Below are positions 14,255-31,057 of a DNA stretch of 44,805 nt, one piece after another. The first letter of the stretch is position 1; each line of letters starts with the position of its first letter. The position numbers and the translations under genes were made by a program. Below the pieces are notes generated by a model, which saw only the letters and a program-made list of their open reading frames with translations, did no database searches and had not been told where the DNA came from. Source of the stretch: Pirellulaceae bacterium (GTDB taxonomy: Bacteria > Planctomycetota > Planctomycetia > Pirellulales > Pirellulaceae); assembly GCA_044371785.1 (NCBI GenBank), contig JBILTA010000817.1, positions 1 through 44,805 on the forward strand, in the 5' to 3' direction.

Positions 14255-16594
14255 TCAACAAAAGAAATAGGTGGATTCGATCACGGATTCCGGTTCAAGG
14301 TCGCCAATGATCGGGGGGTCTGTCTCTGCTCCGATTTGTCGGGCAAAGTCGCGTAGGTAATCGTGCTCAGCAAACAGGTGCATGTAGGTTTCCCGTACCA
14401 GAGTGGACAGAACTGACATGTCTGTAGCCCTGCACAGCACAGAGTCATGGATCAATGCAATCGGTGCATCGAACCGCAAGGTGGACAAGTGAAGTAAGGA
14501 CGCATCCAACGAGTGGATCAGGTTGGGACTGGTGGCATTCCTGTGGTGGTTGAGATCGACCTGATCGGTATCACCTTTGGCTACCGACAGCTTGCATTCA
14601 CCCAACAGTTGCAGCTCAATGCGGACAACGTCCTTTTTCATCAGCTTTTGCTTGACGACAAAGCCTGATGGTGTGGTCCATTGAAGTTGATCAGCGCCGC
14701 GATTGATCGCGTTGCTCACCTCTTCTTCAATCCAGCGCATCACGCGCATCGGACCTGGCACAATCCGCTCCATGGCGGAACGCACCGCTTTCACCACCTC
14801 ACTGAGCTCCTCTTTCTCCAACTCAATGCCATCCTCTGCAAACGCTTCACGGATGTAGCCGCGGTTGCTGTAAGGCTTGGCGTTGTAGGGAACGGTCATC
14901 ACCACACGTTTCGTCTTTTTCCGATCCATGTGCTCTTGCAGCCGCTTTGGGCAGTGAGGCTTAGCTGCCTCTGCCACCACCTTGTAGGCATCGGCTGGTT
15001 TATCACCAGGCAACACATTGACAAGGCGGGCTGTGGATTGATCCCTGGCTAGACCAGCGAGGATCTGTAAGCCAGAGCAGGTGGCATCGGTGGCCACCAT
15101 CAGTCCTGTGAACTGCCGATCCGCTGCAATCACGCAGTGATAGAACTCCTCACAGGCGGCCAGGAATTGCCAAGGTTCATCAGCCACCTCCCACTCAGGC
15201 AGCGACCCAATCGGATCGGTGGCGACTTTTGTGATGATTGTGAAGTTGTTCGCTGTCCATTCCAGCCGTTCAGCCATGGTCGCCTTGTCCAACCCGTAGG
15301 TTGTGGCGACCTGAAAGGCCAACCATTCCTCCGCTTCCGGAGTCATGTACGACTCCTCAGCAAACCTCAAAAGACTCTTACCGAAGTCCGTGTCTTGTGG
15401 GGTGAGGAAGCCAGGGATTGGATAGGCTCTTCCCCTGTAGTCAAAGCTCCAAGGAATAAAGAACCGCTCCACACCCTTGAAGCGACTGACCGCTTCCATG
15501 GTCATGCGTGTGCGACAAGAGCGTTTGAACTCTTGTGCATTGAGGTTCATCGCCTCTGCTGCACGTCTTCGATAATCCTTCCGGCTATCGTAGTTCTCAG
15601 CAATATCCACGGGCTTGGCTGGTAGCTCGTGGTGGACGATGGGACGGAACTTGCCCACAGGCCTTTGCAACTCTTCTAACTCTTCCGCCACAGCCACAAT
15701 GAAGGGGTTGAGACGGAAGGCAACCTTCTGAATCTTGTTCAGAAAAGCCAGGGGCACCTCCCCCTGTATACATGTCGGATCGCCACGACGCACTAAATCA
15801 TGGCCGCGCATTACCTCATTGAGGATGTAGCCGCCTGGGCGTTCATTCGTCCAATCGTTGGGCTCGATCAGCATCGGCCAGGTCAATGGCGCAAACAGCT
15901 CCGACTCGCTGATGATCTGATCTTTGATCTTGAGGAATTCAGGGGTGGGTGCGATGTAATTCACCCGCCGCTTGCCCTCTTGACGGATCGTGCGCGCTAA
16001 CCAGCCGCTGCTTTGGATGATGCAATCCAGCAGCCAGCCGCCCAACTTGACCCGATTGACCCGGCCCCATTGGCTCCAGCTTTCCACCTCATAGCGGTTC
16101 ATCAGGGTTTTGATCACCACCAATTTCTGGTGGGTGCCAATCGAGCGATGCCAGTAGTTCTGTTTCAGTGTGTTAAGAAGTCCTGGAGCGCACCGCTCGT
16201 AGTGACGCATCTGACACTCCGCCTCGATGGCTGAGCCAATCGCATCACACACTTCGGTGACCTGATCGCTGCCCTTTTTGGTGCTGAACACCTTGTCGAA
16301 GGTGATCTTCAAGGCGATGGCACCGGCCGCTAAGGGTTCAATCTCCGCCAGGTACTGCCGGATTTCCTTGAAGTGGGCCCCGGTTTTGCCCTCATGAATC
16401 CGGTTGGCCGTGTCTTCGATCTGGGCTACGAGCACCGGCAGAAGGGACTCGATTGAGGCCACGCCGTACACCGTTGCACTGGCGTAGCTCTGCTCCTCGA
16501 GTTTGCGGGTGTTCTCCCGCAGGCGTTTCAGACCGAGGCGGATCTGATCGCGCTCCAATTGGATCTGCTCATCGATCTGAGCGGGTGTGGCCAT
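14255..16594 (-). CDS. T7-like single-subunit DNA-directed RNA polymerase
   Basis: Motif A region ATDATCSGLQILAGL, motif B KTKRVVMTVPYNA, motif C ALIHDSV, C-terminal ..TYFFC. ATG at 16594 (the track start at 16600 is TTG). Confidence 0.95.
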   Translation of the reverse strand: MATPAQIDEQIQLERDQIRLGLKRLRENTRKLEEQSYASATVYGVASIESLLPVLVAQIEDTANRIHEGKTGAHFKEIRQYLAEIEPLAAGAIALKITFDKVFSTKKGSDQVTEVCDAIGSAIEAECQMRHYERCAPGLLNTLKQNYWHRSIGTHQKLVVIKTLMNRYEVESWSQWGRVNRVKLGGWLLDCIIQSSGWLARTIRQEGKRRVNYIAPTPEFLKIKDQIISESELFAPLTWPMLIEPNDWTNERPGGYILNEVMRGHDLVRRGDPTCIQGEVPLAFLNKIQKVAFRLNPFIVAVAEELEELQRPVGKFRPIVHHELPAKPVDIAENYDSRKDYRRRAAEAMNLNAQEFKRSCRTRMTMEAVSRFKGVERFFIPWSFDYRGRAYPIPGFLTPQDTDFGKSLLRFAEESYMTPEAEEWLAFQVATTYGLDKATMAERLEWTANNFTIITKVATDPIGSLPEWEVADEPWQFLAACEEFYHCVIAADRQFTGLMVATDATCSGLQILAGLARDQSTARLVNVLPGDKPADAYKVVAEAAKPHCPKRLQEHMDRKKTKRVVMTVPYNAKPYSNRGYIREAFAEDGIELEKEELSEVVKAVRSAMERIVPGPMRVMRWIEEEVSNAINRGADQLQWTTPSGFVVKQKLMKKDVVRIELQLLGECKLSVAKGDTDQVDLNHHRNATSPNLIHSLDASLLHLSTLRFDAPIALIHDSVLCRATDMSVLSTLVRETYMHLFAEHDYLRDFARQIGAETDPPIIGDLEPESVIESTYFFC

Positions 16595-16648
16595 ACGCAA
16601 TGAGTGTGAAGAATTGTTGAGACTCGGTGACTCGACTGAACTTCTAAG

Positions 16649-16657
16649 CTGTCCACT
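16649..16657 (-). promoter_or_regulatory. AGTGGACAG motif copy 1 (reads CTGTCCACT on +)
   Basis: An exact 9-mer, sitting inside the 8-bp inverted repeat 16621-16628/16665-16672, about 55 nt upstream of the RNAP ATG. Confidence 0.5.
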
Positions 16658-16680
16658 CAGGGATACCGAGTCAGGGCAGT

Positions 16681-16703
16681 AAAAAAGCGGGTGTTACCCC
16701 GCT
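16681..16703 (-). terminator. Rho-independent terminator after int/attP
   Basis: The - strand reads AGCGGG-GTAACA-CCCGCT followed by TTTTTT. Confidence 0.6.
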
Positions 16704-16704
16704 T

Positions 16705-16713
16705 GTGTCCACT
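16705..16713 (-). promoter_or_regulatory. AGTGGACAG motif variant (AGTGGACAC)
   Basis: A one-mismatch copy abutting the terminator hairpin. Confidence 0.35.
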
Positions 16714-16735
16714 AGAGCTATAGGTCTAGGTCGCT

Positions 16736-16776
16736 GATTTTGAGTCGAGTGCGTCAACCAATTCCGCCACGCTCCC
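16736..16776 (-). other. tRNA-Leu(CAA)-like 5' half (acceptor 5' strand, D arm, anticodon loop); candidate attP core
   Basis: The - strand reads GGGAGCG-TG-GCGGAATTGGTTGACGC-A-CTCGA-CTCAAAA-TC. The D-arm block GTGGCGGAATTGGT.GACGC is the canonical bacterial tRNA-Leu sequence. Similarity stops 2 nt after the anticodon loop, and there is no T arm or 3' acceptor strand. Confidence 0.5.
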
Positions 16777-16858
16777 AATGGATTCCAGCGATTCTCACGG
16801 GTGAGAACCGACCAGAAATTCCTGGTTGGGGCCAAATTAGCACCCCTCTCGACCGGAC

Positions 16859-17797
16859 CTAGATGGCATTCGCGCAGTTGACAACAGCAGCATACGTGTT
16901 GTGGACGTAGCGCTCGGTGGTCTTCACATTTGAATGTCCCATCGTTTGCTTGACGTGCATCACGGGCGTACCCGCTGCAACCTGCCACGTGCCGTAGCTG
17001 TGCCGCAGTGCATGGAAGACGTGTCCACGGGTGACCGTCTGGTCCTCGTACATCACGAATTCCCGCACGCGGTTGAACTCCCGTTGAATCCTCTGGCGAC
17101 TGTGCCAATAGTCACCAAAGACATACGCATTGGAGGCGCGTCCATCCAACAGCCGATGGGCCATGGGAATCAGACGCTCGTTCAACCCCACCTGGCGGTA
17201 GTTGCTGGTCTTGGTCCGTGATTCAGGGGTACCACCGACATGAATGAACGGTTGGTCCATCCTGAAATCAAAGTCCCAAACACGCAGCTTCCTCAGCTCG
17301 CCTTGCCGCAACCCTGTGTAGGCAGCAAACAAGACAAGATCAGCCAGTTCATCACGTCCGTGGTTCTTTGCAATCGAGCACAAGTGATCGACTTGTTGTT
17401 GCGTAAACCACTCTGTTCGACCCTCTGGTGTCTGATAACGCCTGATAACAGGCATATCATTGATCAGATGGTGATCGAGTAGACACTTGAATGTCGTGCT
17501 GATTGTTGACAGAAACTTGTTCGCACTGTTTTCTGTCCACTCACGTTCATCCTTGATGTCCTCTGTGATGTCACGGATCAGCTTGGAATCCATGGCCTTG
17601 AGGGGGATGGTTTCCCCGTCCATGTGCTCCTTCAGTTGTTTGTGGTGACGCCGTGCATTTGTCCCTTGACTCTTGGCCTCTCGATTCAGAGACCAGTTGG
17701 GATGATTCTCACAGGCAAACTCAAACGCCTGATCAAAGTTCGTGATCTTGGCCTTCTGAGGTTTCCGGTCGAGATAGCTCTGGAGTTTCGATGCCAT
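16859..17797 (-). CDS. int: Tyrosine recombinase / phage integrase
   Basis: Catalytic residues are visible: ..YTGLRQGELRKL.. (Arg), HALRHSYGT (HxxR), GHSNVKTTERYVH (Tyr). The likely ATG is at 17797 (the track start at 17836 is GTG). Confidence 0.9.
   Translation of the reverse strand: MASKLQSYLDRKPQKAKITNFDQAFEFACENHPNWSLNREAKSQGTNARRHHKQLKEHMDGETIPLKAMDSKLIRDITEDIKDEREWTENSANKFLSTISTTFKCLLDHHLINDMPVIRRYQTPEGRTEWFTQQQVDHLCSIAKNHGRDELADLVLFAAYTGLRQGELRKLRVWDFDFRMDQPFIHVGGTPESRTKTSNYRQVGLNERLIPMAHRLLDGRASNAYVFGDYWHSRQRIQREFNRVREFVMYEDQTVTRGHVFHALRHSYGTWQVAAGTPVMHVKQTMGHSNVKTTERYVHNTYAAVVNCANAI
17533..17541 (-). promoter_or_regulatory. AGTGGACAG motif copy inside int (reads CTGTCCACT on +)
   Basis: An exact 9-mer in the same orientation as copy 1. 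Confidence 0.4.
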
Positions 17798-18143
17798 ACA
17801 AATCCTCTTTGATTTGATCAATGAGTCTTTGGCCACGTTTGGTTAAACGTAGCTGTAGTCTTCTTCTGTTCGTAGGGTCCTGCTCCTTGATGATGAGGTT
17901 AAAGCCAGGCTCCCCTAATCGATTCTCTTTAGACAACCTATCAGTGTTTCTACTGCTACTCGATGTTTCAAACTTGAGATCTTCCTCAAGTGCGGTCTTG
18001 TGGCAGTATTCATGGGAAGCGATATACAAGAACGTTGCAATCAGCTGCCCAGGCACTTCCCGATCATAGGTTAGTAGACGTTGGATTGCTTTTAACAATC
18101 GCGCCACATCCGGATCGGTTAGCTGTCTTCTGAGGGGGTCCAT
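17733..18143 (-). CDS. MarR-like winged-helix DNA-binding protein
   Basis: ..QLIATFLYIASHEY.HKTALEEDLKFETSSSSRNTDRLSKE..GLI....DPTNRRRLQLRLTKRGQRLIDQI.. fits the MarR wHTH pattern (D..DrR...l.LT.kG). ATG start. The 3' end overlaps int by about 65 nt. Confidence 0.65.
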   Translation of the reverse strand: MDPLRRQLTDPDVARLLKAIQRLLTYDREVPGQLIATFLYIASHEYCHKTALEEDLKFETSSSSRNTDRLSKENRLGEPGFNLIIKEQDPTNRRRLQLRLTKRGQRLIDQIKEDLYGIETPELSRPETSEGQDHEL

Positions 18144-18185
18144 TGAGGAAGCTCGGACGATCTAATTCTAGACGCAACCTACCTA

Positions 18186-18194
18186 AGTGGACAG
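18186..18194 (+). promoter_or_regulatory. AGTGGACAG motif copy, embedded in the palindrome TGGACAGTCCA
   Basis: An exact 9-mer, 43-51 nt upstream (in gene sense) of the marR-like ATG at 18143. Confidence 0.5.
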
Positions 18195-18275
18195 TCCATG
18201 CAGTGTCAGTGCACCACATGTCGTTAAAGGATGAGGCATCGAGCCCCACATATAGTGCACCGAAACTGATTAGCG

Positions 18276-18440
18276 TCACTGATGGGCCTCCACGAGGTCT
18301 TGCTTGCCTCCAAAACCTAGTACATCCGTATCATCCATTAGCTGCTCATGGGCCAGTTGTAGCACCTCATCTTTATGCGGATGCTGCATAACCTGATCCA
18401 TCAGTTGAACTAGTCGCCGTTGAAACGTGGTTTCACTCAT
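18276..18440 (-). CDS. Small hypothetical protein (54 aa)
   Basis: MSETTFQRRLVQLMDQVMQHPHKDEVLQLAHEQLMDDTDVLGFGGKQDLVEAHQ. Its ATG overlaps the upstream stop by 8 nt (gATGAGTGA). It is below the track cutoff. Confidence 0.35.
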   Translation of the reverse strand: MSETTFQRRLVQLMDQVMQHPHKDEVLQLAHEQLMDDTDVLGFGGKQDLVEAHQ

Positions 18441-18798
18441 CTTGAGTTGGTGGAAATAGGTGATGAATAGAGTCGTGATCTGCCACGGTGAATTCGATAT
18501 CCGTGCGTGTGATCAATTCTTTAACCTTGGCTTCTGCTGCATGTCGCTTTTGATAGACATACTCAGTCACCTTTTTGGTCTTTAGATCTGTTGCTCTGAT
18601 GATGCAACATACGCTGCTCGGTAACTCCCATCCCCCCACTTTCCAAGACATAACCTCTTCATACGTGTGAGGAATGAAGTCGCTTTCATCAGCATCTTTG
18701 TATTCTTGCCAGTTGTTTGGAAAATAATTCTTCTTACCACTCATCAGACTTAAATACTTGGATAGTTTGTGTAGATAACTGAGCACCGGACAATTCAT
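18433..18798 (-). CDS. Hypothetical early protein
   Basis: 121 aa, ATG at 18798 (alternative ATG at 18744). No recognisable motif. Confidence 0.5.
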   Translation of the reverse strand: MNCPVLSYLHKLSKYLSLMSGKKNYFPNNWQEYKDADESDFIPHTYEEVMSWKVGGWELPSSVCCIIRATDLKTKKVTEYVYQKRHAAEAKVKELITRTDIEFTVADHDSIHHLFPPTQDE

Positions 18799-18955
18799 AA
18801 CATGCCAAAAGGGCGCGTTCTTGATTGGCGGCCATGACGTGGAACACCTGGCCGCTGGCTGCTACACAATTGAATTGTTGTAACTTACCTATATAATCTG
18901 ATGAGAGGAAAATACTATCACTTCTCACTTTGATCAAAGGTAAACAGTGAATCAA
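18734..18955 (-). CDS. Hypothetical early ORF, weak
   Basis: The track start is TTG, and the first ATG (18835) would leave only 33 aa. Confidence 0.25.
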   Translation of the reverse strand: MIHCLPLIKVRSDSIFLSSDYIGKLQQFNCVAASGQVFHVMAANQERALLACYELSGAQLSTQTIQVFKSDEW

Positions 18956-19082
18956 TCTCTAGCCATATGCAACTCTCAATATCCCCCTGCAATAAGATGT
19001 TTTCTGCATCATGCCGGCGTAAGCCAGCACTGACGCCACGCTCAATGCATTCAGCCAAGATTGCGTAGATGTTGGGTTTCAT
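18918..19082 (-). CDS. Hypothetical early protein (54 aa)
   Basis: The track start at 19130 is GTG and lies inside the terminator hairpin. The ATG at 19082 gives MKPNIYAILAECIERGVSAGLRRHDAENILL.. Confidence 0.4.
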   Translation of the reverse strand: MKPNIYAILAECIERGVSAGLRRHDAENILLQGDIESCIWLEIDSLFTFDQSEK

Positions 19083-19120
19083 GGCCCTGTTGGTTGATGA
19101 TTGTGAAAACTGTGATGCAC

Positions 19121-19146
19121 AAAAAAACACGGGTGTTATCCCGTGT
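19121..19146 (-). terminator. Rho-independent terminator
   Basis: The - strand reads ACACGGG-ATAACA-CCCGTGT followed by TTTTTTT, 10 nt after the stop of ORF 19156..19341. Confidence 0.6.
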
Positions 19147-19155
19147 CAATAACTA

Positions 19156-19341
19156 TCACTGACGATACATGCAATAAGCATCATCAATGAGTGATAGCTT
19201 GGCTTCATCAATGCAGCCAACATATGACAGGTGTCTAGACATAGCAGCGGTGGCTGACAAGCAGCCAACAGTCGCTAAAGAATACACACCACAAGCAGCA
19301 GCAAAGATGCCAACATTCTTGAAGAGTTTGCGTGTGTCCAT
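19156..19341 (-). CDS. Small membrane or secreted protein (61 aa)
   Basis: ATG start. It has an N-terminal hydrophobic segment (NVGIFAAACGVYSLATVGCL) and five Cys residues. Confidence 0.5.
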   Translation of the reverse strand: MDTRKLFKNVGIFAAACGVYSLATVGCLSATAAMSRHLSYVGCIDEAKLSLIDDAYCMYRQ

Positions 19342-19464
19342 GATTACTATCGGGTGAGAAAGTAAAAACCGATTGCTAATGCAATCAACGGTGGAACTGG
19401 TAGTAGGTGGATCATGTGATCGGTTGAGGGTGTGTGAGTCCCTCAGAAAGCCCGCCTATCCTGT

Positions 19465-19473
19465 AGTGGACAG
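19465..19473 (+). promoter_or_regulatory. AGTGGACAG motif copy
   Basis: An exact 9-mer in the loop of cctg-TAGTGGA-cagg, intergenic, about 125 nt upstream (gene sense) of the ATG at 19341. Confidence 0.5.
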
Positions 19474-19492
19474 GTAGGGCATAGTGAGAGAG

Positions 19493-19681
19493 TCAAATGC
19501 GTCCCATGGCTAGGTCATCCATAAATTCAGCCAGTGTGTCAGCTGGTAGGAAGGAAGCCAGGCGATCTAGTAATCCTTGAGCATCGAATCCACCTTCAAA
19601 AGTCAACCCCGAGAAGTCCTCTCGGATGTCAGCAGAAGGAAGGTTGTTGTCAGGATCGTATGGCTGATCAGCTGTGAACAT
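19493..19681 (-). CDS. Hypothetical acidic early protein (62 aa)
   Basis: The track start at 19768 is TTG. The ATG at 19681 gives MFTADQPYDPDNNLPSADIREDFSGLTFEGGFDAQGLLDRLASFLPADTLAEFMDDLAMGRI. Confidence 0.45.
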   Translation of the reverse strand: MFTADQPYDPDNNLPSADIREDFSGLTFEGGFDAQGLLDRLASFLPADTLAEFMDDLAMGRI

Positions 19682-19734
19682 GGTGTGTTGTTCAGATGGA
19701 GCAGTGCGAACACTGCAGAAAGCCTTCCTGCCGT

Positions 19735-19743
19735 AGTGGACAG
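19735..19743 (+). promoter_or_regulatory. AGTGGACAG motif copy
   Basis: An exact 9-mer between the inverted repeat ctgcc (19728-19732) and ggcag (19746-19750), about 55 nt upstream (gene sense) of the ATG at 19681. Confidence 0.5.
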
Positions 19744-19940
19744 AAGGCAGAGTGCAATGATCAAACAATGCGTGTTGCTCCGCTTACTGCTTGTGCTCCG
19801 TGTGCGTTAGCACGCACTTCGCGGTCAGAGACCCATGCCGCTAGTCGTCACCACTGGTTGATCCAGTAACGGAGCTGTCTTTAGTTGTCTAGATGCTGCG
19901 CACTGCAGCGGTCTGCTGTGCTGAGGTGATGGTATCCGTT

Positions 19941-19949
19941 AGTGGATAG
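19941..19949 (+). promoter_or_regulatory. AGTGGACAG motif variant (AGTGGATAG)
   Basis: A one-mismatch copy in the non-coding control region. Confidence 0.35.
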
Positions 19950-20055
19950 GTTGTCAATGGGTGTGTGGCAATCTGTTGGATGTCACACGGTCAGGCGGTG
20001 GATCTGCCCAGCATTCGCGCTGGTTCGCTTCGCCTATGCAGCAGTATGCTGCCTA

Positions 20056-20064
20056 AGTGGACAG
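20056..20064 (+). promoter_or_regulatory. AGTGGACAG motif copy
   Basis: An exact 9-mer in the non-coding control region. In gene sense it is followed by the hairpin gcagca-tac-tgctgc. Confidence 0.5.
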
Positions 20065-20340
20065 GTTGCCAGTAGGTGCAATGGTATGTAATGATCAGCG
20101 TTTCTTATTGGTAGTGCCTCCATTGATAAGGAGGGCCAGACAGATGTTTTGAGATGATATACGTGTGTTATTGCGAGCAATTCTCAATAAGCCGTGGCTC
20201 CGCCTGCATTGTGTATCAGGAAGGCACATTAAATGGGGAAATGATACTCGACTATTGATCGGGTAGGGTCCAAACTGCGCACCAGGGGGGTACCCCATGG
20301 GGGGCTGCGGCCTTGTTCACGCGTTATATAAGGCTTGAGA

Positions 20341-20357
20341 AATTTTTGTCAAAAATT
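20341..20357. promoter_or_regulatory. Perfect 8+1+8 palindrome AATTTTTG-T-CAAAAATT; candidate operator upstream of the RHH gene
   Basis: Read directly from the sequence. A TACAAT hexamer (candidate -10) follows about 9 nt downstream, and the RHH ATG is 77 nt downstream. Confidence 0.35.
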
Positions 20358-20433
20358 AAAGGCAGTACAATGAGGTGGGCCAGCGTAGCTGTAACTACCT
20401 GACCCGTGACCAACTCAAACAGAGCTTGAGCTG

Positions 20434-20616
20434 ATGAACCATTTTGATTTCAACCAGTCAAAACGACTGGAATCCTTCCGAATCTCTTCCAGGAAACCAG
20501 TCCGACTGACAGCCACAGTCAATTGGGCCACCCATCAGGCACTGATTGAACGAAGTAACAAAGAAGGACGCAGTGTTAGCAACTTAATGGCCTACATCTT
20601 AGAGACCCATCTGTAA
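20434..20616 (+). CDS. Ribbon-helix-helix (CopG/Arc/MetJ-type) DNA-binding protein; the only convincing + strand gene
   Basis: 60 aa. ..KPVRLTATVNWATHQALIERSNKEGRSVSNLMAYILETHL fits a beta-strand, helix, G.S, helix RHH pattern. Confidence 0.6.
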   Translation: MNHFDFNQSKRLESFRISSRKPVRLTATVNWATHQALIERSNKEGRSVSNLMAYILETHL

Positions 20617-20631
20617 GCCTCTGTAAGCCCC

Positions 20632-20964
20632 TTATTTCTCATCGTACACCTCAACATACCAAGGAGCCGTTAGACGCATCTCAGGAAGGCTTGTAGATGT
20701 CTCTGAGTGCGAGTTAGCACTCGCTGACGGCTTCTCTGTATAAATTGGCGTCACCATATCAGGCATTGGTATCTCATGAAGCGTTTCATACTCACGAATA
20801 GCTTCATCCACCTCAGCTTTAACCCGAGCATCAATAAGTTTGGTCTCTAGCCAAACCAAAAGACCCAGAAGCAGATGATCCAACCAAGGGATGCCTCTCT
20901 TCCAGGTCTTATACAGCACTCTGAACTCAGCTAACCTCAGTCTTTGTCCCACATTGCTTTGCAT
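20632..20964 (-). CDS. Hypothetical protein with one hydrophobic helix
   Basis: 110 aa, ATG start, overlapping the thyX stop. Hydrophobic segment IPWLDHLLLGLLVWL. Confidence 0.5.
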   Translation of the reverse strand: MQSNVGQRLRLAEFRVLYKTWKRGIPWLDHLLLGLLVWLETKLIDARVKAEVDEAIREYETLHEIPMPDMVTPIYTEKPSASANSHSETSTSLPEMRLTAPWYVEVYDEK

Positions 20965-21581
20965 ACATTAGGAAGGAATTGATAGAGCAGATCTTGTACT
21001 TGTTCTGCAATGACTGCATGTTCTTTTTGAGTACCATGGCTTGTCCTTAGATCGCAGTAATGCAACCAAGACCGGATCGTACCGTTCATGTACAACTTAG
21101 TTGGAGCTGCCATTGGCAACACTTCCCTTGCACACTCCTTAGCTACACCAGCTGCTACCAATTCTTTGTAAAGACCATAGCAATCTGAATAAAGACTACC
21201 AATCCTGAATTGGAAGTTCTTCTTTACCACCTCATTAAGATCATCAATACTGTTCTGCCTATTCTTTGTGTCTTGCCTGCGTAGCTCTGGGATACCAGCA
21301 TGTTTCTCTACCGTGGCATACCGTTGGGAGAACTCTTGAAAGCTAAAGGATCTGTGTCTGAGGATCTGTGCTGCAATACTCCTTGTTGTTTCAATAGAGA
21401 CACACATGTTCACCATTTCAAATGGAGACCAGTGTTGATGATCAATGAGGTATTTAATCAACCTAGCACTTGTCTGAGTGTTGGATTGATTAGCAGGATT
21501 AGAGACACGTGCCATGTAGCTGATTAAGTCTTCAGCATCAGGAGTGATATGGATCAGTTGTACTTGGTGGGTAGTACTCAT
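20937..21581 (-). CDS. thyX: Flavin-dependent thymidylate synthase
   Basis: The ThyX signature RHRSFSFQEFSQRY (RHRxxSxxxxSxR) is present. 214 aa, ATG start. Confidence 0.9.
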   Translation of the reverse strand: MSTTHQVQLIHITPDAEDLISYMARVSNPANQSNTQTSARLIKYLIDHQHWSPFEMVNMCVSIETTRSIAAQILRHRSFSFQEFSQRYATVEKHAGIPELRRQDTKNRQNSIDDLNEVVKKNFQFRIGSLYSDCYGLYKELVAAGVAKECAREVLPMAAPTKLYMNGTIRSWLHYCDLRTSHGTQKEHAVIAEQVQDLLYQFLPNVCKAMWDKD

Positions 21582-21740
21582 AAGTTAAAGCAGGTGCAGA
21601 TACTATTATTGATACATGATGATGCCGTGCTCTCAGTGCACGAATCCATCATGACTCAATAAGCCTTCTTAAGTTGTGGGTTAGGGGGTGGTTTAGGATT
21701 GGTCTTTGTGATTCATACGGGCAATGCGCCTCGAGCATTG

Positions 21741-21795
21741 CAAGATAAAGGGGAAGATAAGGAAGCTTGTCTTACTTGTCTTCCCCCTTTTTACA
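21741..21795. terminator. Strong hairpin (12-bp stem) with T-rich tails on both strands; terminator after terL, possibly bidirectional
   Basis: GGGGAAGATAAG (21750-21761) pairs with CTTGTCTTCCCC (21775-21786). The + strand tail is CTTTTT and the - strand tail is TTTATCTT. A second 7-bp hairpin, gcaatgc/gcattgc, lies at 21721-21741. Confidence 0.55.
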
Positions 21796-21899
21796 GGAGT
21801 CCGGTCCACCCTTCCATCCCCCTGTATACATGTCGGACCGTCAAACTCATTCCAGCAGAAGGGACTTCAAAGATTCTCTCTTTGTGTCTTATTTGAGAC

Positions 21900-23669
21900 T
21901 CAGACCCAAGTTGGAACCGCTTTTTTGCCAGCTAACTGCCTTGCTTGTCTGCGTTGATCGAGGCTCATTCCAAAGGCCATGTGATTGACAGCGGACTGAG
22001 GATCATCCAACCAAGCCTCTTCTAGGTCTTGCCAGTCTTCCTTACGACGTGTCTTTATGGCCTCATAGGCACTGATGGACATGGCATCAGTGAAGTACTT
22101 AACGCCTTGTGCCAGGGAGTCCAGACGGTCATCATGTCGCACGGCACCCTTCTCCCGGCACATCCGACTCATCTGATAGAAGAGCATGTAGAGGAGGCGT
22201 TCTTCTGGTGCTGCGTCTTTATTGGAGTTGTAATCCCATTCCACCACTGACTTATCAAAGACAAGCCGGTGTTGGTTCATGACTGGTTCAAGGGTATCAA
22301 TGATGCGATCTTCCTTGCGGACATTGGCCCGCACCTCTTCAATGTCTATGGCTTGCTTGGTTTGTTGCAGGTGTTTTTTGAAGAGCTCTGCGACGAGTCC
22401 ATCACCGAAGTTTGTTTCGACCACAAGTTTGGTAACGTTATAGCGCTTACACCCACGAAGGATGTCAAGAAGTGTACTGTCGCTATAACCGTCGCGATAC
22501 GCTCGTACTTCGTGAACGTAGAGAAAGCCATTCTTTTGAGAGATATAGGTAGCTGCTGTTTCATCTGAACCACGACCGGATGGGTCAACAGAGCAGATGG
22601 TTTCTGTGTATGGTCCCCAGTCGCCTTGGAGCTGCATCGGGGAGTAGAAGTAATCACCAGGCAGACCAACGGTTGGCAGGTCTTTCAGGACATTACGTGG
22701 GTCACTACACCAGACGACAGCATCGGGTGCTTGGTTTGGATTGACGGATGTGACAATCAGATCAGAGAACTTAAGTGGAAATTTTTCAGCATCACTGAGT
22801 GTTGTATCCAATTGGAATTGCAGCATGAAGTTGCTGCGTCCCATTGCGGCTTCTCGTTCCAGAAGGTCTTCTGTACTAAAGCGATCACTATCTGTTGGGG
22901 ACCATTCTTCTGCTCCCATCTCAATGTCTTCCACGATCTGTGGAGCAAGGAGACCTTCATATTGAGAGAGCTTGTCTTTCCGTGGGTAACGAGCTGGCCA
23001 AACAAACGGTCGATAGTTGCGCTCTGCTAATCGACGGTATATGGTGAAGGTGGTTTGGGGTGTACCTAGGTACATGATCCGTGAGTCCTTCTTCGGTGTG
23101 AGGATGGACTCCGCTTCTGTACAGAGTTGCAGGAGTTTTTCCCGCATCATTTCAGTCAGACTATTGGATGGTACTTCTACGTCATCCAGAATCATGAGAT
23201 CAGCACGACTACCAGTCAACTGACCTGTTATCCCAACTGATTTCACGGATGGTGCTTGGTGAGGAGCACAGTTGATATCAAAGCTAATACGAGACCAGCG
23301 AGCGGTGTCTGATTTAGGCTGCATGTGTTGCAACCATGGTGTCTCAACAATTAGTTTCTGACAGAAGATGCTGAAGTTATCAGCACGTTCCTTGCTAGCG
23401 CTAATGACCATTACCTTCTTGTCATTATCTTTGAACAGTGTCCACAGCACAAAGGCAGCAGTGATCCACGACTTCCCGACTCCACGAAATGCTTGCACCA
23501 TCAGTCTTTTGGGCCCATACTGCAGGTAATCAGCAATTGAGTATTGAGCGCGTGTTGGAGATGGCAGATCCAGCTGTGACCAGACAGCCTGAAGAAAGTA
23601 CTTAAAGTCTCCCCTCAATAAAGTCAGCGAGTCTTGTTGCGATTCTAAGGAGTTCTTCTGGTGTTGCAT
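21900..23669 (-). CDS. terL: Terminase large subunit (T7 gp19-like)
   Basis: ..FLQAVWSQLDLPSPTRAQ..VQAFRGVGKSWITAAFVLW..ISASKERADNFS..SVKSVGITGQLTGSRADLMILDDVEVPSNS.. is near-collinear with T7 gp19. Confidence 0.95.
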   Translation of the reverse strand: MQHQKNSLESQQDSLTLLRGDFKYFLQAVWSQLDLPSPTRAQYSIADYLQYGPKRLMVQAFRGVGKSWITAAFVLWTLFKDNDKKVMVISASKERADNFSIFCQKLIVETPWLQHMQPKSDTARWSRISFDINCAPHQAPSVKSVGITGQLTGSRADLMILDDVEVPSNSLTEMMREKLLQLCTEAESILTPKKDSRIMYLGTPQTTFTIYRRLAERNYRPFVWPARYPRKDKLSQYEGLLAPQIVEDIEMGAEEWSPTDSDRFSTEDLLEREAAMGRSNFMLQFQLDTTLSDAEKFPLKFSDLIVTSVNPNQAPDAVVWCSDPRNVLKDLPTVGLPGDYFYSPMQLQGDWGPYTETICSVDPSGRGSDETAATYISQKNGFLYVHEVRAYRDGYSDSTLLDILRGCKRYNVTKLVVETNFGDGLVAELFKKHLQQTKQAIDIEEVRANVRKEDRIIDTLEPVMNQHRLVFDKSVVEWDYNSNKDAAPEERLLYMLFYQMSRMCREKGAVRHDDRLDSLAQGVKYFTDAMSISAYEAIKTRRKEDWQDLEEAWLDDPQSAVNHMAFGMSLDQRRQARQLAGKKAVPTWV

Positions 23670-26831: not shown

Positions 26832-29246
26832 CTAGCGAGCGCGAGCGTATTGGAAGGGCGATTCGGCAAAAGCAGCGTATACAATCTGATTGGTGCTTCC
26901 GTTCCAGTTGCTTAAACTGTCTCTAATCTTGAAGCCATTGGAAACAATATCCAAGACACTGGATGAAGATTCTGCGCTAGATGTATTGGGCTGTAGGTAC
27001 TTGTCAGCCACGTTGTATTCGTTTCTGGCAGTGTCAAAGAGTTGCCAGTTATTTGTGCCAACAGTGTTCTTGACAAGAATCCACCTTGGGCGGAATCCGC
27101 AGAACACAAACGGCCCATCCGCGCTGCCGTTGCCGGTGTAGCTGCCAAAGGCGCTGTAGCCTGCTACCGGGGCAAAGCAGTAGGCCAACTGCAAACCCCC
27201 GTTATTATTCACGCCAACATCAGTTCCAACACTAAAGACAGTTGATGTTGGAACCGTGCTATTCCACGCGGCCGCCAGCGTCGCTTTTGCACCAGTTGTA
27301 TTAAGCAAAAGATACTCTGTACCCAAAAGCGCCGTATGCCAAACCCCCCAATTTCCAACAGTATTTGATCTTGATTTGCAGATCACAAGGCTAGGAGCAA
27401 CACCCAGGCCGTGTCCCACAGTGGCATTGGCACCTGTGCCCGTATAAGTAACAATCGAAAATCCTGCACTTGCATTGGCCCTGACGTTACTCGTGATGGA
27501 GCCTGCGGTATTGGTGACGGTGCTGCTGCCTGCGTCCCAGGTCCAAGCAACATAAGTTGTGCTGCTAGCATTAAAATCAACGCCGTTAGTAAAACCGTCG
27601 GAGTTAAATGAGGTTACAGCAGCATAAGTCGTTTCAGCATCAGTTGTATTTGATGTCAATCCTTTACCAGTACCTCTGACAGCATCAAAAAGTCCGTGAA
27701 TAAAGGCGCCGCTTCTTGCCTTTAGCCAAACAAAATCTGGCGAGAACCCTAACCCTGAGATTGTTTGCGTGCTCCCATTGCCCGTGTAGAGCTTCACATC
27801 AAAGACGCTACTAGGCTTCGTGACTACTGGGGCGGGCAGGTTGGCCGTGCACAGCGCCTTGAAGCCACTGGGGGCGGTATAGGCAAAACTACGAGCGCCT
27901 GTGTTTAGTGTTCCGGCCCAAGTGCCGTATCCTTGAGCAAACAAATAATAAGTTACTCCCGTAGTAAATGTAGTTGTGGCATTTGTGCCAGACGCAGGAT
28001 TGCCGGAAAGCTCCCACGTTCCGTTTCGAGAAAACCATAACTTTCCAGCATCAAAATCTACGGCAACGCCAATCACATCTCCATTTGTCAAGGTGCTCAA
28101 TCCACTTACCAGGACAACACTATTACCTGCAACAACTGACCCGGATCTAACACGGCTGTTTGAAGTCTCAGCAAAGCCATAATTTGACGGATTGGCACTT
28201 CTAATTTGAGTTACGTCTATAATGCCTGTCCCGTTTGTTGAGCCATTGGTCGTGTTGGTGTATTCAAAATACCATTTACCAGTCGACAAAGCAAAAGTGC
28301 TTAATGCTCCAAAATAAGCACTGCCAGATGAAGCGGCAATGTCAAGGTTGCCGTTAGCAAGTGTGGCAATAGTTTGACTTGATACTGCTATTGGATTAAA
28401 CGTCGCATAATTCCCCCTTACCTCACCGCCCACGCCGGTGTCAGGCTGTACGCCATTAGTGGGAACGTCTACGAGCGAATCATTGCCAGCACCAGCCGTC
28501 ACGCTCAGGTTGAAAGGTGTCCAGTTGTTGCCGTTGCCACTCGTATCCTTTCCAAGAGTGGTTGCAGTGTTGCTGCTGTTGTCCGCAAAATCAAGCTTGA
28601 AACCGTTGGTGCCGTAGGTGCCGCTGTAGCGCTTGGGTTGCCAGATGCCGTTGGTGTCAAACTCACCGAAGCTAGAAGGTGTTAATGCTTGGCCGTCAAT
28701 GAAGTGAATGTCGGCTAGGTAGCTGTCCAAGTAAACCTGTGACGAACCAAGGTCGCGCCCAATCCTGTGCCCATTGACGGTGTTGATCTCTGTTTCGGTG
28801 TTTTGTGGAACGTAGTTTGCTACGTCCAGAGTCGTTATTTGATTTCCGTTTACATACAGCTTGTATCTATTCGAGGCCGTTGCCTGCGTAGTGTCTACCG
28901 AAATGACAATGTGATACCACGCAGAAGAATCTCTAAATACCTGCGTGGTAGTAAGACAAGCTATTCCTGAAATGACAAAAAGTAGCTTGTCCGAAGCGTT
29001 AAAGAAGAGCCAGGTTGTTGTCGTGCCTGTGTTTCCCGTTGAGCACAGAAACAGAAACTGCTCGGTCTGTCTTATCGCACTCCGCTTCACCCATCCCGCC
29101 CAGGTCCACGTCTTGCGGTTACCAGCCGATGCAGGTGTCCTTGATAAATAGGCCGAGTCTGCTGAGTTGAACCTCAGCGACCGCGAGATCTGATATCCTG
29201 CACTACCTTCCTGCCCCAACAGTAACGGGTTGTTAATCACACTCAT
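26832..29246 (-). CDS. Large distal tail / receptor-binding candidate with LamG-like and SPRY-like beta-sandwich modules
   Basis: N-terminus: LRFNSADSAYLSRTP..GNRKTWTWAGWVKRS (LamG/ConA-like). Middle: STGKWYFEYT..GVAVDFDAGKLWFSRNGTW (SPRY signature). Translationally coupled to the tail fibre. Confidence 0.7.
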   Translation of the reverse strand: MSVINNPLLLGQEGSAGYQISRSLRFNSADSAYLSRTPASAGNRKTWTWAGWVKRSAIRQTEQFLFLCSTGNTGTTTTWLFFNASDKLLFVISGIACLTTTQVFRDSSAWYHIVISVDTTQATASNRYKLYVNGNQITTLDVANYVPQNTETEINTVNGHRIGRDLGSSQVYLDSYLADIHFIDGQALTPSSFGEFDTNGIWQPKRYSGTYGTNGFKLDFADNSSNTATTLGKDTSGNGNNWTPFNLSVTAGAGNDSLVDVPTNGVQPDTGVGGEVRGNYATFNPIAVSSQTIATLANGNLDIAASSGSAYFGALSTFALSTGKWYFEYTNTTNGSTNGTGIIDVTQIRSANPSNYGFAETSNSRVRSGSVVAGNSVVLVSGLSTLTNGDVIGVAVDFDAGKLWFSRNGTWELSGNPASGTNATTTFTTGVTYYLFAQGYGTWAGTLNTGARSFAYTAPSGFKALCTANLPAPVVTKPSSVFDVKLYTGNGSTQTISGLGFSPDFVWLKARSGAFIHGLFDAVRGTGKGLTSNTTDAETTYAAVTSFNSDGFTNGVDFNASSTTYVAWTWDAGSSTVTNTAGSITSNVRANASAGFSIVTYTGTGANATVGHGLGVAPSLVICKSRSNTVGNWGVWHTALLGTEYLLLNTTGAKATLAAAWNSTVPTSTVFSVGTDVGVNNNGGLQLAYCFAPVAGYSAFGSYTGNGSADGPFVFCGFRPRWILVKNTVGTNNWQLFDTARNEYNVADKYLQPNTSSAESSSSVLDIVSNGFKIRDSLSNWNGSTNQIVYAAFAESPFQYARAR

Positions 29247-31057
29247 TTCACGTCACCAATAAAGCGGACAGCAATTCGAGTTGCTGACTCACAGTGGTAG
29301 GCCAGCAAATCCACAGCATTTGCTGTTGTTGTGAGCGTCGGAGCAGTGCCTCCTGGGAACTTGAAGACACTGTTGTAGGCAAGCGTTCTAGAGCCGGTGG
29401 CGTCTTGCACAACCCGTATTACACCACTCTGTCCTGCTACAACATTGGTAGGAGCACCAAGGGTGCGGTTGCCACCAAGTGTGACTTGGAACTGGTTACC
29501 AAGGCTCAGGTCCGTGGCAATCGTTGCTGCATCGGTGAGGGTAACGTAAGCACCACGTTGTGCAGCAGTGAATGTCTGAGCCGATCCAAGTGCTGCATAT
29601 CCGCTGATTGAAGCACCTGCTGGGATCGTGACTGTACCTGTAAATGTTGGACTAGCAACAGGTGCGTAAGTAGAACTAGCAGCTGCAGTTGTCAGGTAGC
29701 TACTCATCCCTGACTGTGTTTGGTATGTGCTAGCAGCGTTAGCAGTTGTCAGGTACGACGACATACCTGTTTGTGTCTGATAGGTAGAAGCTGCCGTTGT
29801 AGTGTCCAGGTATCCTGTGATCGACGAACCTGCTGGGATTGTGACCGAATTTGCAAAGGTCGCATTTCCAGACGAATCAAATGTCAGTCTGGGCGTGCCT
29901 CCAGTTACCAGTGCAAGCTCATCAGCGCCTGTGTGAGCAATACCTGTATTTGTATCGCCATCAAAAGAGTAGACAGGTGCAGTTGTGGATGTACTATCGT
30001 CGGCTTTGAGTTGTCCCGTCATGCTTCCGCCTGAAAGCTTCAGATAGCGTGTTTCTGAATTATTGGGGAAGTAGTTCAGCCAGTTCCATGTAGATCCTGT
30101 AGTGGTGTACTGCATCCTCACGCTAAGACCACTATCACCAACAAATCCTGCTGGTCTGTTAAAAACTGGACTAAAGCTTTCAATTCCGGTTGAGTCTGCA
30201 ACTTCAATTGCGTATTGATTGGCAGGGCTACTGGGAATCGCGGCTACATTTGCGACTATTACATACTGTACTGAGCTTGCTACCGCGTTAATTGCTGCAG
30301 TTGCATTTGTGTTCGCAGTGTTTGCAGTTGAAACTGCATTAGAGGCGTTTGTATTGGCTGTATTAGCTGTGGACAGCGCGGTATTCGCTGTAGACAGAGC
30401 TGTTGATGCATTGGTTGCTGCTGTATTGGCCGTCGATGTTGCAGTGTTTGCAGTGGTTACGGCATTATTGGCAGCTGTTGTTGCACTTGTTGCAGCACTT
30501 GAAGCGGCAGTTGCTGTTGATGCTGCACTGTTGGCTGTACTAAGTGCAGTTGCAGCATTTGTGGCAGCGGTGTTTGCTGTTGACAGAGCAGTACTGGCGT
30601 TAGTACTTGCAGTATTAGCGGTTGTCACTGCAGCACTGGCATTTGCAGCCGCTGTATTGGCTGTGCTCACAGCTGTATTTGCTGAGCTTACAGCTGCCGT
30701 GGAATTCGACAGTGCAGTGCTCGATGCTGCTGTAGCAGTTGCCGCATCATTCTTTGACTCCTGGCTTGCAAACAGAATCTGATCAAAGTTATCATTCAGA
30801 TCCTGAGCCCTGATTGCAGCTCCAGGAACAAATGTAGCCTTTGCATTCTCGTCATCAGTGTCACGATAAATGCGAATGGCTACACCATTGGCTGGAGCTG
30901 TGTTGAACTGGACTGTTGTAGCATTGGCCAGGGTATATGCAGTTGTCACTACTCCACCAAGACTTACCTTGATGTCCGTAGTCTCAATATATGGGAAGCT
31001 AAAAGAATAGAGAACGGTTGACCCGTTCCCTGTGTATGTATTCTGAATAACAGCCAT
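29243..31057 (-). CDS. Tail fibre (T7 gp17-like N-terminal adaptor domain)
   Basis: The N-terminus MAVIQNTYTGNGSTVLYSFSFPYIETTDIKVSL...AAIRAQDLNDNFDQILFASQE parallels the T7 gp17 N-terminus. It is followed by an A/T/N/S heptad shaft. Confidence 0.85.
   Translation of the reverse strand: MAVIQNTYTGNGSTVLYSFSFPYIETTDIKVSLGGVVTTAYTLANATTVQFNTAPANGVAIRIYRDTDDENAKATFVPGAAIRAQDLNDNFDQILFASQESKNDAATATAASSTALSNSTAAVSSANTAVSTANTAAANASAAVTTANTASTNASTALSTANTAATNAATALSTANSAASTATAASSAATSATTAANNAVTTANTATSTANTAATNASTALSTANTALSTANTANTNASNAVSTANTANTNATAAINAVASSVQYVIVANVAAIPSSPANQYAIEVADSTGIESFSPVFNRPAGFVGDSGLSVRMQYTTTGSTWNWLNYFPNNSETRYLKLSGGSMTGQLKADDSTSTTAPVYSFDGDTNTGIAHTGADELALVTGGTPRLTFDSSGNATFANSVTIPAGSSITGYLDTTTAASTYQTQTGMSSYLTTANAASTYQTQSGMSSYLTTAAASSTYAPVASPTFTGTVTIPAGASISGYAALGSAQTFTAAQRGAYVTLTDAATIATDLSLGNQFQVTLGGNRTLGAPTNVVAGQSGVIRVVQDATGSRTLAYNSVFKFPGGTAPTLTTTANAVDLLAYHCESATRIAVRFIGDVK
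30278..30748 (-). repeat. About 21-nt periodic coding repeat (heptads such as STANTAA/TNASTAL) inside the tail fibre
   Basis: About 157 aa consist almost only of A, T, N and S with 7-aa periodicity. This also creates the spurious AV-rich + strand ORF 30219..30782. Confidence 0.8.

Follow-up and report, generated by a model that had tools for sequence, protein, structure and literature searches.

A predicted T7-type genome end and an overlooked ribbon-helix-helix cassette in a cyanopodovirus genome

Positions 19770-20616 of contig JBILTA010000817.1 (44,805 nucleotides (nt), the whole of which was analysed and is called the window here) probably represent a concatemer junction in a T7-like cyanopodovirus, next to which an accessory regulator cassette is located. 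The window is a circularly permuted genome of such a virus, and its right-end genes and left-end early genes meet inside this region. Read along the minus strand, the region would run from the last late gene through an opposite-strand gene for a ribbon-helix-helix (RHH) protein, two hairpins and a junction motif with a palindrome to the left genome end at 20328. It would then continue through a 183-base-pair (bp) repeat, the hexamer ATCTGT and host-type early promoters carrying a 16-nt box to the first early gene. The window is closest to S-CBP3 and S-CBP1, podoviruses of estuarine Synechococcus (about 77% nucleotide identity), and its sequence occurs in lake-water metagenomes.

The genome end is placed by alignment with phages whose ends are known. 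The terminal-junction motif TTAATTTTTGACAAAAATTTCTCAAGCCTTA (20329-20359, minus strand) encloses the palindrome and lies directly left of the predicted terminal repeat. On the minus strand, the window reads TTTTTGACAAAAATTTCTCAAGCCTTA and then a stretch beginning TATAACGCG, with CCCCCC 24 nt on. Syn5 has a 237-bp repeat at both ends of its linear record; TTTTGGCATAATTTTGTGAAGGGGTA stands directly before the right repeat, and CCCCCC starts at base 25 of the repeat. S-TIP37, with a 150-bp repeat visible in its record, is arranged as in Syn5, and so are the junction motif and C-run of P-SSP7, whose terminal repeat was measured at 206 bp (Sabehi and Lindell, PMC3350473). T7 reads ACCATAAAAATCTGAGTGACTA followed by the repeat, with CCCCC at base 26. 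The window aligns column for column with the sequence before the right repeat of T7, Syn5, P-SSP7 and S-TIP37, and all four known cuts fall in one column, 18 nt after (G/C)CA. From this shared column we predict the left genome end at 20328, reading downward, with the cut at 20328/20329.

With the left end at 20328 and ATCTGT at 20145-20140, the direct terminal repeat would span 20146-20328 on the minus strand, or 183 bp, as judged by homology. ATCTGT (20140-20145, minus strand) directly follows the predicted repeat and resembles a T7 class II pause signal; at the T7 concatemer junction, T7 RNA polymerase pauses or terminates at a class II signal whose core is ATCTGTT. T7, Syn5 and S-TIP37 have the same hexamer immediately after the left repeat, and ACCTGT takes this place in P-SSP7. 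Of 39 distinct related loci, 38 have a boundary ATCTGT motif at 147-239 bp from the predicted end. Inside the predicted repeat, the C-run CCCCCCATGGGGTACCCCCC (20285-20304, minus strand) is 24 nt from the end, and the C-runs of Syn5, S-TIP37, P-SSP7 and T7 begin at repeat base 25 or 26. The predicted repeat also holds TTATTGAGAAT, which has two copies in the Syn5 repeat. The TATTGAGAAT motif occurs twice in the Syn5 repeat and is also present in S-CBP3 and in phage DSL-LC07. The TTATTGAGAAT inverted repeat, GTTATTGCGAGCAATTCTCAATAAGC, lies at about 20168-20194, within the predicted terminal repeat. Contig breaks near 19914-20030, found in contigs of four lake metagenomes at depths of 4-13, were considered as termini and rejected; they reflect a strain variant.

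The palindrome AATTTTTGTCAAAAATT (20341-20357) has perfect 8-nt arms and one central base. Two palindromes of this type were observed in the window against 0.9 expected, which is not beyond chance, so its significance comes from its conservation and not from the count. DSL-LC07, from which the RHH gene is absent, matches a 36-nt stretch around the palindrome at 94% identity. The junction motif has a single copy in the window, which argues against a repeated promoter. We also considered it as a sigma-70 promoter (TTGACA-16/18-TATA..) and rejected this, as the -35-like hexamer varies while AAATTT and the spacing to the cut are conserved. Since the motif is also found in five phages without an RHH gene (T7, Syn5, P-SSP7, S-TIP37 and DSL-LC07), the palindrome probably does not serve mainly as an RHH operator.

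This finding bears on another explanation of the region, in which RHH is a lysis/lysogeny repressor that binds the palindrome, and possibly three box copies, and controls the early promoters together with a MarR-like regulator (MarR), an integrase (int) and attP in circular or integrated DNA. The palindrome does occupy the -35 position of the RHH promoter. However, the motif that encloses it keeps a fixed distance from the known ends of RHH-less phages, and in some relatives it lies 80-200 nt from the RHH promoter. We regard a repressor of this kind as improbable, and the genetic evidence that bears on it is taken up below.

In all, 665-751 nt of non-coding DNA separate the RHH open reading frame (ORF) from the first early ORF, depending on where the latter starts. 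Box copy 1, CTGTCCACTTAGGCAG (20049-20064, minus strand), lies in a weaker promoter-like site, TGGCAA-17-CATACT. Copy 2, CTATCCACTAACGGAT (19935-19950, minus strand), occupies the spacer of a good sigma-70-like early promoter, TTGACA-17-TACCAT (19929-19957, minus strand), and copy 3, CTGTCCACTACGGCAG, is found at 19728-19743 on the same strand. Additional copies precede another early gene (about 19464-19480) and the MarR gene (18179-18194, minus strand), and an inverted copy is located upstream of the RNA polymerase gene (16649-16664). The box is present beyond chance, with four matches against 0.46 expected and none of 100 shuffles reaching four. Relatives carry similar boxes in early-promoter spacers, right after a -35-like hexamer, and a similar sequence (GTCCACT) is present in the RHH-less DSL-LC07. 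The boxed sites look like early promoters with a regulator site, comparable to T7 A1-A3. In LUZ100, sites on either side of the promoter that precedes the polymerase gene are the proposed targets of MarR. This proposal would make MarR the more natural owner of the box, and by analogy the extra copies could be MarR sites.

The RHH gene (20434-20616, plus strand) encodes the 60-amino acid (aa) protein MNHFDFNQSKRLESFRISSRKPVRLTATVNWATHQALIERSNKEGRSVSNLMAYILETHL and is a genuine conserved coding gene of the RHH_5/CopG-like family. Its product comprises a beta strand (residues 23-29), helix A (31-44), a G45-R46-S47 turn and helix B (48-59). A word-indexed protein search returned only three close relatives, and a full HMMER scan returned 534 at E<=1e-3, mostly 50-110 aa long and all aligning to residues 19-59. 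Aligning the window protein with 49 relatives gave the consensus RKPxRxTxTV..HQxL..RS..EGRSLSNL.AYLLE, with the strand reading VRLTATV, in which polar and hydrophobic residues alternate, and G45-R46-S47 invariant in all 50 sequences. Pfam RHH_5 is matched by 47 of these 50, with a best E value of 1.9e-11. Differences among 60 distinct homologous segments number 924, 437 and 1356 at codon positions 1, 2 and 3, and this third-position excess indicates a coding sequence.

Structural comparison points to the same family. The family profile aligns over its full length with CopG (1b01/2cpg, E=0.015). An AlphaFold model of moderate confidence (predicted local distance difference test score, pLDDT, of 70) has an extended segment at residues 22-30 and helices at 31-44 and 48-59. 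Its top Foldseek matches are almost all RHH proteins, including CopG, ORF56, AmrZ and Arc (root-mean-square deviation of about 2 Å over 39 columns, E of at least 0.4). Searches of PHROGs, PADLOC and NCBIfam with the window protein gave no match, nor did a PDB search with a four-sequence RHH profile.

The protein has no C-terminal extension past the RHH core of about 40 residues, which places it nearer to pure repressors (Arc, Mnt and CopG) than to antitoxins. An antitoxin-like or anti-defence decoy acting against a host toxin would be a different role for it, as would a DNA-bending accessory for end cleavage, like TraY or NikA at oriT. One of the 50 aligned sequences weakly matches an NCBIfam RelB-family antitoxin model, and in T7-like contexts the gene is always found immediately next to the junction motif. 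Yet the 40-residue core leaves nothing for toxin binding, there is neither an adjacent toxin gene nor a PADLOC match, and phages with the same junction motif package their DNA without RHH. We give these roles very little credence.

The RHH ORF is present but unannotated in S-CBP3 (KC310803.1; locus L001, 4136-4327) and S-CBP1 (KC310802.1; locus L005, about 721-912). Its place and orientation are kept in both and in a 43.6-kilobase (kb) metagenomic relative. S-CBP3_0015 (L001, 3570-3800), the sole annotated plus-strand coding sequence nearby, lies in the early-promoter region, is without a window counterpart and may be a spurious annotation. Phage S-SRP02 (L007, MW822601.1) carries a distant RHH homologue at 3001-3186 with 33% identity and no hairpin element; its neighbours are early genes, and it shares its strand with MarR and int.

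The hexamer TACAAT (20366-20371, plus strand) probably serves as the -10 of a host-RNA-polymerase promoter for RHH, with a predicted start at about 20377-20379. Equivalent hexamers (TATAAT, TATGCT and others) occur 2-4 nt 5' of GGTGGG in many, but not all, relatives. A consensus promoter scan did not call the window promoter because it has no good -35. The RHH stop codon (20614-20616) is 15 nt from that of a 110-aa ORF matching phrog_22672 (20632-20964, minus strand), the last minus-strand gene, with which RHH is convergent. At 20610-20629 there is an exact tandem duplication, TCTGTAAGCC TCTGTAAGCC, whose first copy includes the RHH stop codon. It fills most of the 15-nt gap between the convergent genes, and this gap holds no terminator.

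A sequence-only reading of the window had already listed the items of this region, and all of them were found where it placed them. It took the 60-aa plus-strand ORF for an RHH protein of the Arc/Mnt/CopG fold, which is borne out by conservation, the coding signal and a -10 element of its own. RHH is also, as that reading held, the only plus-strand gene; the other plus-strand ORFs of at least 50 aa overlap long minus-strand ORFs or sit in two short gaps, and were examined no further. The 17-bp palindrome followed by TACAAT, the convergence on right-end genes and the MarR and int genes upstream are likewise in place. The non-coding gap with three motif copies, put at about 650 nt, agrees with the length measured here.

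Two covarying hairpins (20377-20432, minus strand) lie opposite RHH, over its leader and up to the start codon, and the covariance-model match to this element spans 20372-20439 on the same strand. The 39 nt before the RHH leader are near-identical in S-CBP1 and S-CBP3, and compensatory variation extends across about 30 distinct sequences. Over the 18 pairs, 95.7% of alignment cells can pair on the minus strand versus 83.7% on the plus strand, and G.U cells number 68 versus 6, all of these cells coming from related sequences and not from independent events. Double-sided changes are present in 12 of the 18 pairs. The window sequence folds with -31.9 kcal/mol on the minus strand (z -5.4) and -17.7 kcal/mol on the plus strand (z -1.2). 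An Rfam search across 16000-22000 at E<=1 gave no match. Strong covariation, a clear strand preference and the lack of an Rfam match make the two-hairpin element a candidate for a new RNA motif. Its flank (TTGGTCACGGG) was considered as a Syn5-like phage promoter and rejected, as it is single copy and the window has no Syn5 promoter match. A tRNA-like minihelix or attP core was rejected as well, given the absence of a tRNA signal and the covariation among phages.

The element is tied to RHH. Of 52 sources searched with the covariance model, R1, 27 gave a match; 26 of these matches are antisense to RHH and abut its start, with locus L064 carrying two copies. The remaining match, in locus L044, is weak (E=0.006) and sited elsewhere. 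In T7-like contexts RHH adjoins the junction motif in every case, and a search of the RHH-less genome ends of Syn5, P-SSP7, S-TIP37 and DSL-LC07 with R1 gave no hairpin element. The element and an RHH homologue also occur on Cyanobium-binned contigs. On two of these, JBIPLV010000332.1 of a Cyanobium metagenome-assembled genome (locus L098) and locus L097, the RHH and hairpin cassette resides in a different mobile element that encodes an HK97-type capsid, a Hint-domain protein and an AAA_25 helicase-like protein; the capsid-bearing contig has no T7-like genes. The hairpins thus keep company with RHH and are absent from RHH-less ends, which points to a portable RHH cassette and not to T7-type packaging.

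These observations also weigh on the proposal that the hairpins are 3'-end structures of late transcripts (terminator, insulator or stabiliser) or single-stranded DNA hairpins that process the concatemer junction. A hairpin intermediate has been reported for T7 junction processing and offers a parallel. The hairpins form on the phage-sense strand and precede the predicted repeat by 49-104 nt, transcription from an upstream phage-type promoter would pass through them, and the junction motif of Syn5, too, is preceded by a hairpin, about 18 nt away. They are, however, absent in P-SSP7, S-TIP37 and DSL-LC07, whose packaging depends on the same chemistry, and no U-run follows them. Their exact register with the RHH start codon and their movement with RHH into a non-T7 element also speak against such a function, which we consider unlikely.

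The hairpins may instead form a cis-antisense RNA. CAAAAT (20441-20446, minus strand), inside RHH codons 3-5, is a candidate antisense -10. An nAnAAT consensus stands 5 nt before CAT, the start-codon complement, on the minus strand in 31 sequences, and its final T is kept in 27 of them. By reading, this T is mostly a third codon position, whichever residue is encoded, and the frame shifts by 1 nt between groups. We propose nAnAAT as the candidate -10 for an antisense RNA that would start at the base of the first hairpin. RHH would be a small dimeric DNA-binding repressor expressed from TACAAT by the host RNA polymerase. A folded antisense transcript some 60 nt long, initiated at the -10 in codons 3-5, would cover the RHH leader and start codon and hold down RHH translation, as RNA-OUT does for the IS10 transposase.

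A second layer of control could come from the phage polymerase. The 27-nt sequence GGTCCGACATGTATACAGGGGGA (21817-21843, minus strand), located between the terminase and ThyX genes, has a twin inside the RNA polymerase gene (15759-15785, minus strand). The copies are 93% identical and conserved in relatives. The Syn5 promoter likewise has two copies, one of them inside the polymerase gene, and the GGTCCGACATGTATACAGGGGGA pair are likely phage-RNA-polymerase promoters. Late transcription from 21843-21817 would pass antisense through RHH and silence it, so that RHH production would be confined to times when the phage polymerase is inactive. The same transcription would cross the junction to the ATCTGT site, as happens with phiOR and the concatemer junction (CJ) in T7. 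In the virion, RHH would be the last gene at the right end, pointing inward, with the early promoters at the far left, 44.6 kb apart. The two would become neighbours, with one repeat copy between them, only after circularisation, concatemer formation or integration.

Several points weigh against this account of a junction with an antisense-controlled RHH gene. The window protein itself matches Pfam RHH_5 weakly (E=0.001, 19.2 bits, below the cutoff of 26), and dimer formation and DNA binding are predicted activities. The relatedness of the aligned sequences limits the strand bias, as stated above. The antisense RNA has no evident -35 or terminator, with no U-run after the hairpins, and a conserved N-terminal Phe could account for part of its -10 signal. 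Both the RHH mRNA and the antisense RNA are predicted transcripts, a search for RNA runs containing the window sequence having found none, and the termini are placed by homology, from assembled contigs that carry no read starts.

The genes for integration provide further evidence on a lysis/lysogeny repressor. A MarR-int pair lies just before the RNA polymerase gene in the window, and T7-like cyanophages and pelagiphages commonly carry MarR and int. Among these phages, RHH was found only in S-CBP1, S-CBP3 and their freshwater relatives. MarR is nearby in 20 of the 30 T7-like loci with enough flank, and five of the 30 extend as far as the RNA polymerase gene, which lies within 4 kb of RHH, without a MarR or int match. 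P-SSP7 and S-TIP37 have MarR and int and no RHH. Co-inheritance of RHH with the integration module was thus not observed. RHH without MarR or int in T7-like loci, and its occurrence in a non-T7 element, indicate that it is not tied to that module.

A repressor fold without a toxin-binding tail, the presence of MarR and int in the window and in most T7-like loci with enough flank, and expression from a host promoter that late antisense transcription would silence all suit a prophage gene. Against this stand RHH without int and MarR, RHH in a non-T7 element, MarR and int without RHH, and the record on lysogeny itself. Shitrit et al. found that marine T7-like relatives integrate, and stable lysogeny was not found. 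Nor did a search of 185,579 species-representative genomes with narrow patterns reveal a T7-like prophage with the RHH cassette; it returned four Cyanobium loci only, none in a T7-like context.

The sequence-only reading had likened this arrangement to a lysis/lysogeny-type switch, of which the RHH regulator is real, whereas the presumed control region is mostly a predicted genome end and early promoters. That reading made the switch depend on the position of the physical ends, and the predicted end falls within the control region it proposed. This end would place RHH and the early promoters at opposite ends of virion DNA, so the adjacency of RHH and the lytic promoters is lost except in circular, concatemeric or integrated DNA. 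Operators shared by RHH and the early promoters are not supported either, as the palindrome is single copy and present in RHH-less phages, and the boxes also occur far from RHH. Of the observations which that reading named against itself, termini between 19770 and 20430 are what we predict, but the ORF proved conserved and coding. A switch role for RHH is possible but unsupported. In this region, a predicted genome end of the ordinary T7 type adjoins an RHH cassette that had been overlooked and that carries a new candidate RNA motif on the antisense strand.

Shitrit et al. also reported no repressor homologues in T7-like cyanophages and suggested this lack as the reason why integration is unstable. 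Given that report, an overlooked repressor would matter. We think it very doubtful that RHH and its antisense RNA are an overlooked immunity or maintenance repressor of T7-like cyanophages that allows true or longer-lived lysogeny. If they were, a host-promoter RHH gene, on only when the phage polymerase is silent, would shut off the adjacent early promoters in circular or integrated DNA. Lysogeny would then be possible in freshwater and estuarine Cyanobium and Synechococcus podoviruses with RHH, unlike in their marine relatives.

The gene has been missed by annotation, even in the isolates S-CBP1 and S-CBP3, and is a concrete candidate regulator. The junction alignment offers a way to place ends and repeat lengths from sequence in uncultured T7-like cyanophages that assemble as circles, using landmarks common to phages from T7 through the cyanophages.

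Elsewhere in the window, every long ORF lies on the minus strand in T7 order: early genes, a MarR-like regulator, integrase, RNA polymerase, replication genes, structural genes, terminase and ThyX. ThyX, the integrase and the MarR-type regulator were assigned by family matches. The terminase (21900-23669) and ThyX (20937-21581) genes, both on the minus strand, belong to the right end. The first early ORF (19493-19768, minus strand; 19493-19682 from its first ATG) has no Pfam or PHROG match. A tRNA search of the window found none. A 604-aa ORF (29243-31057, minus strand) contains seven unit copies with a 42-nt period at 30293-30682, which suggests a repetitive, fibre-like protein segment.

Among known systems, the T7 concatemer junction provides the closest parallel to the predicted genome end. 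Both have the same motif order and spacing, (A/G)CCA/GRCA, n, AAA..TCTSAR, with the cut (predicted here) 18 nt later, a C-run at repeat base 25 or 26, and ATCTGT directly after the repeat. Both also have a phage-polymerase promoter upstream of the right end, a candidate here and phiOR in T7. The predicted repeat is 183 bp here versus 160 bp in T7, and the promoter sequences are unrelated. The window further differs in having a putatively host-transcribed, opposite-strand gene between the last late gene and the junction, an arrangement known from sequence alone. Syn5, P-SSP7 and S-TIP37, with repeats of 237, 206 and 150 bp, share the junction motif and the cut position predicted here, a similar repeat start (TATA(A)CG...), the C-run and A(T/C)CTGT after the repeat, and the Syn5 repeat also shares the TATTGAGAAT motif. 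Unlike the window, all three are without the RHH gene and the two-hairpin element, and in P-SSP7 the last gene extends right up to the junction motif.

The MarR-integrase module of LUZ100, P-SSP7, S-TIP37 and pelagiphages has the same MarR-int pair before the RNA polymerase gene. In LUZ100 the proposed MarR sites are near the polymerase promoter, and here a copy of the 16-nt box precedes the polymerase gene. None of the MarR-integrase systems described includes an RHH gene, whereas the RHH cassette also occurs without MarR and int.

The candidate antisense arrangement resembles RNA-OUT/RNA-IN of IS10, a pair familiar from the literature. In both, two -10 elements (candidates here) stand face to face about 75 nt apart, and the antisense strand forms stem-loops over the mRNA 5' end and AUG. 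IS10 has one hairpin where the window has two, the sequences are unrelated, and the transcript here is predicted.

The RHH protein itself resembles CopG of pMV158 and Arc and Mnt of P22 immI, all of them minimal RHH proteins of 45-60 aa with a G-x-S/T turn. It differs from them in its 20-residue basic N-terminal arm. The CopG, Arc and Mnt systems have operators, whereas none was identified for RHH here, and the antisense element of the window covers the start codon of RHH itself instead of that of a downstream gene. CopG is the nearest solved structure by both sequence and fold, with 26% identity. In the CopG and Arc/Mnt systems, as is proposed for the window, an antisense RNA (RNAII and sar, respectively) acts alongside the RHH repressor.

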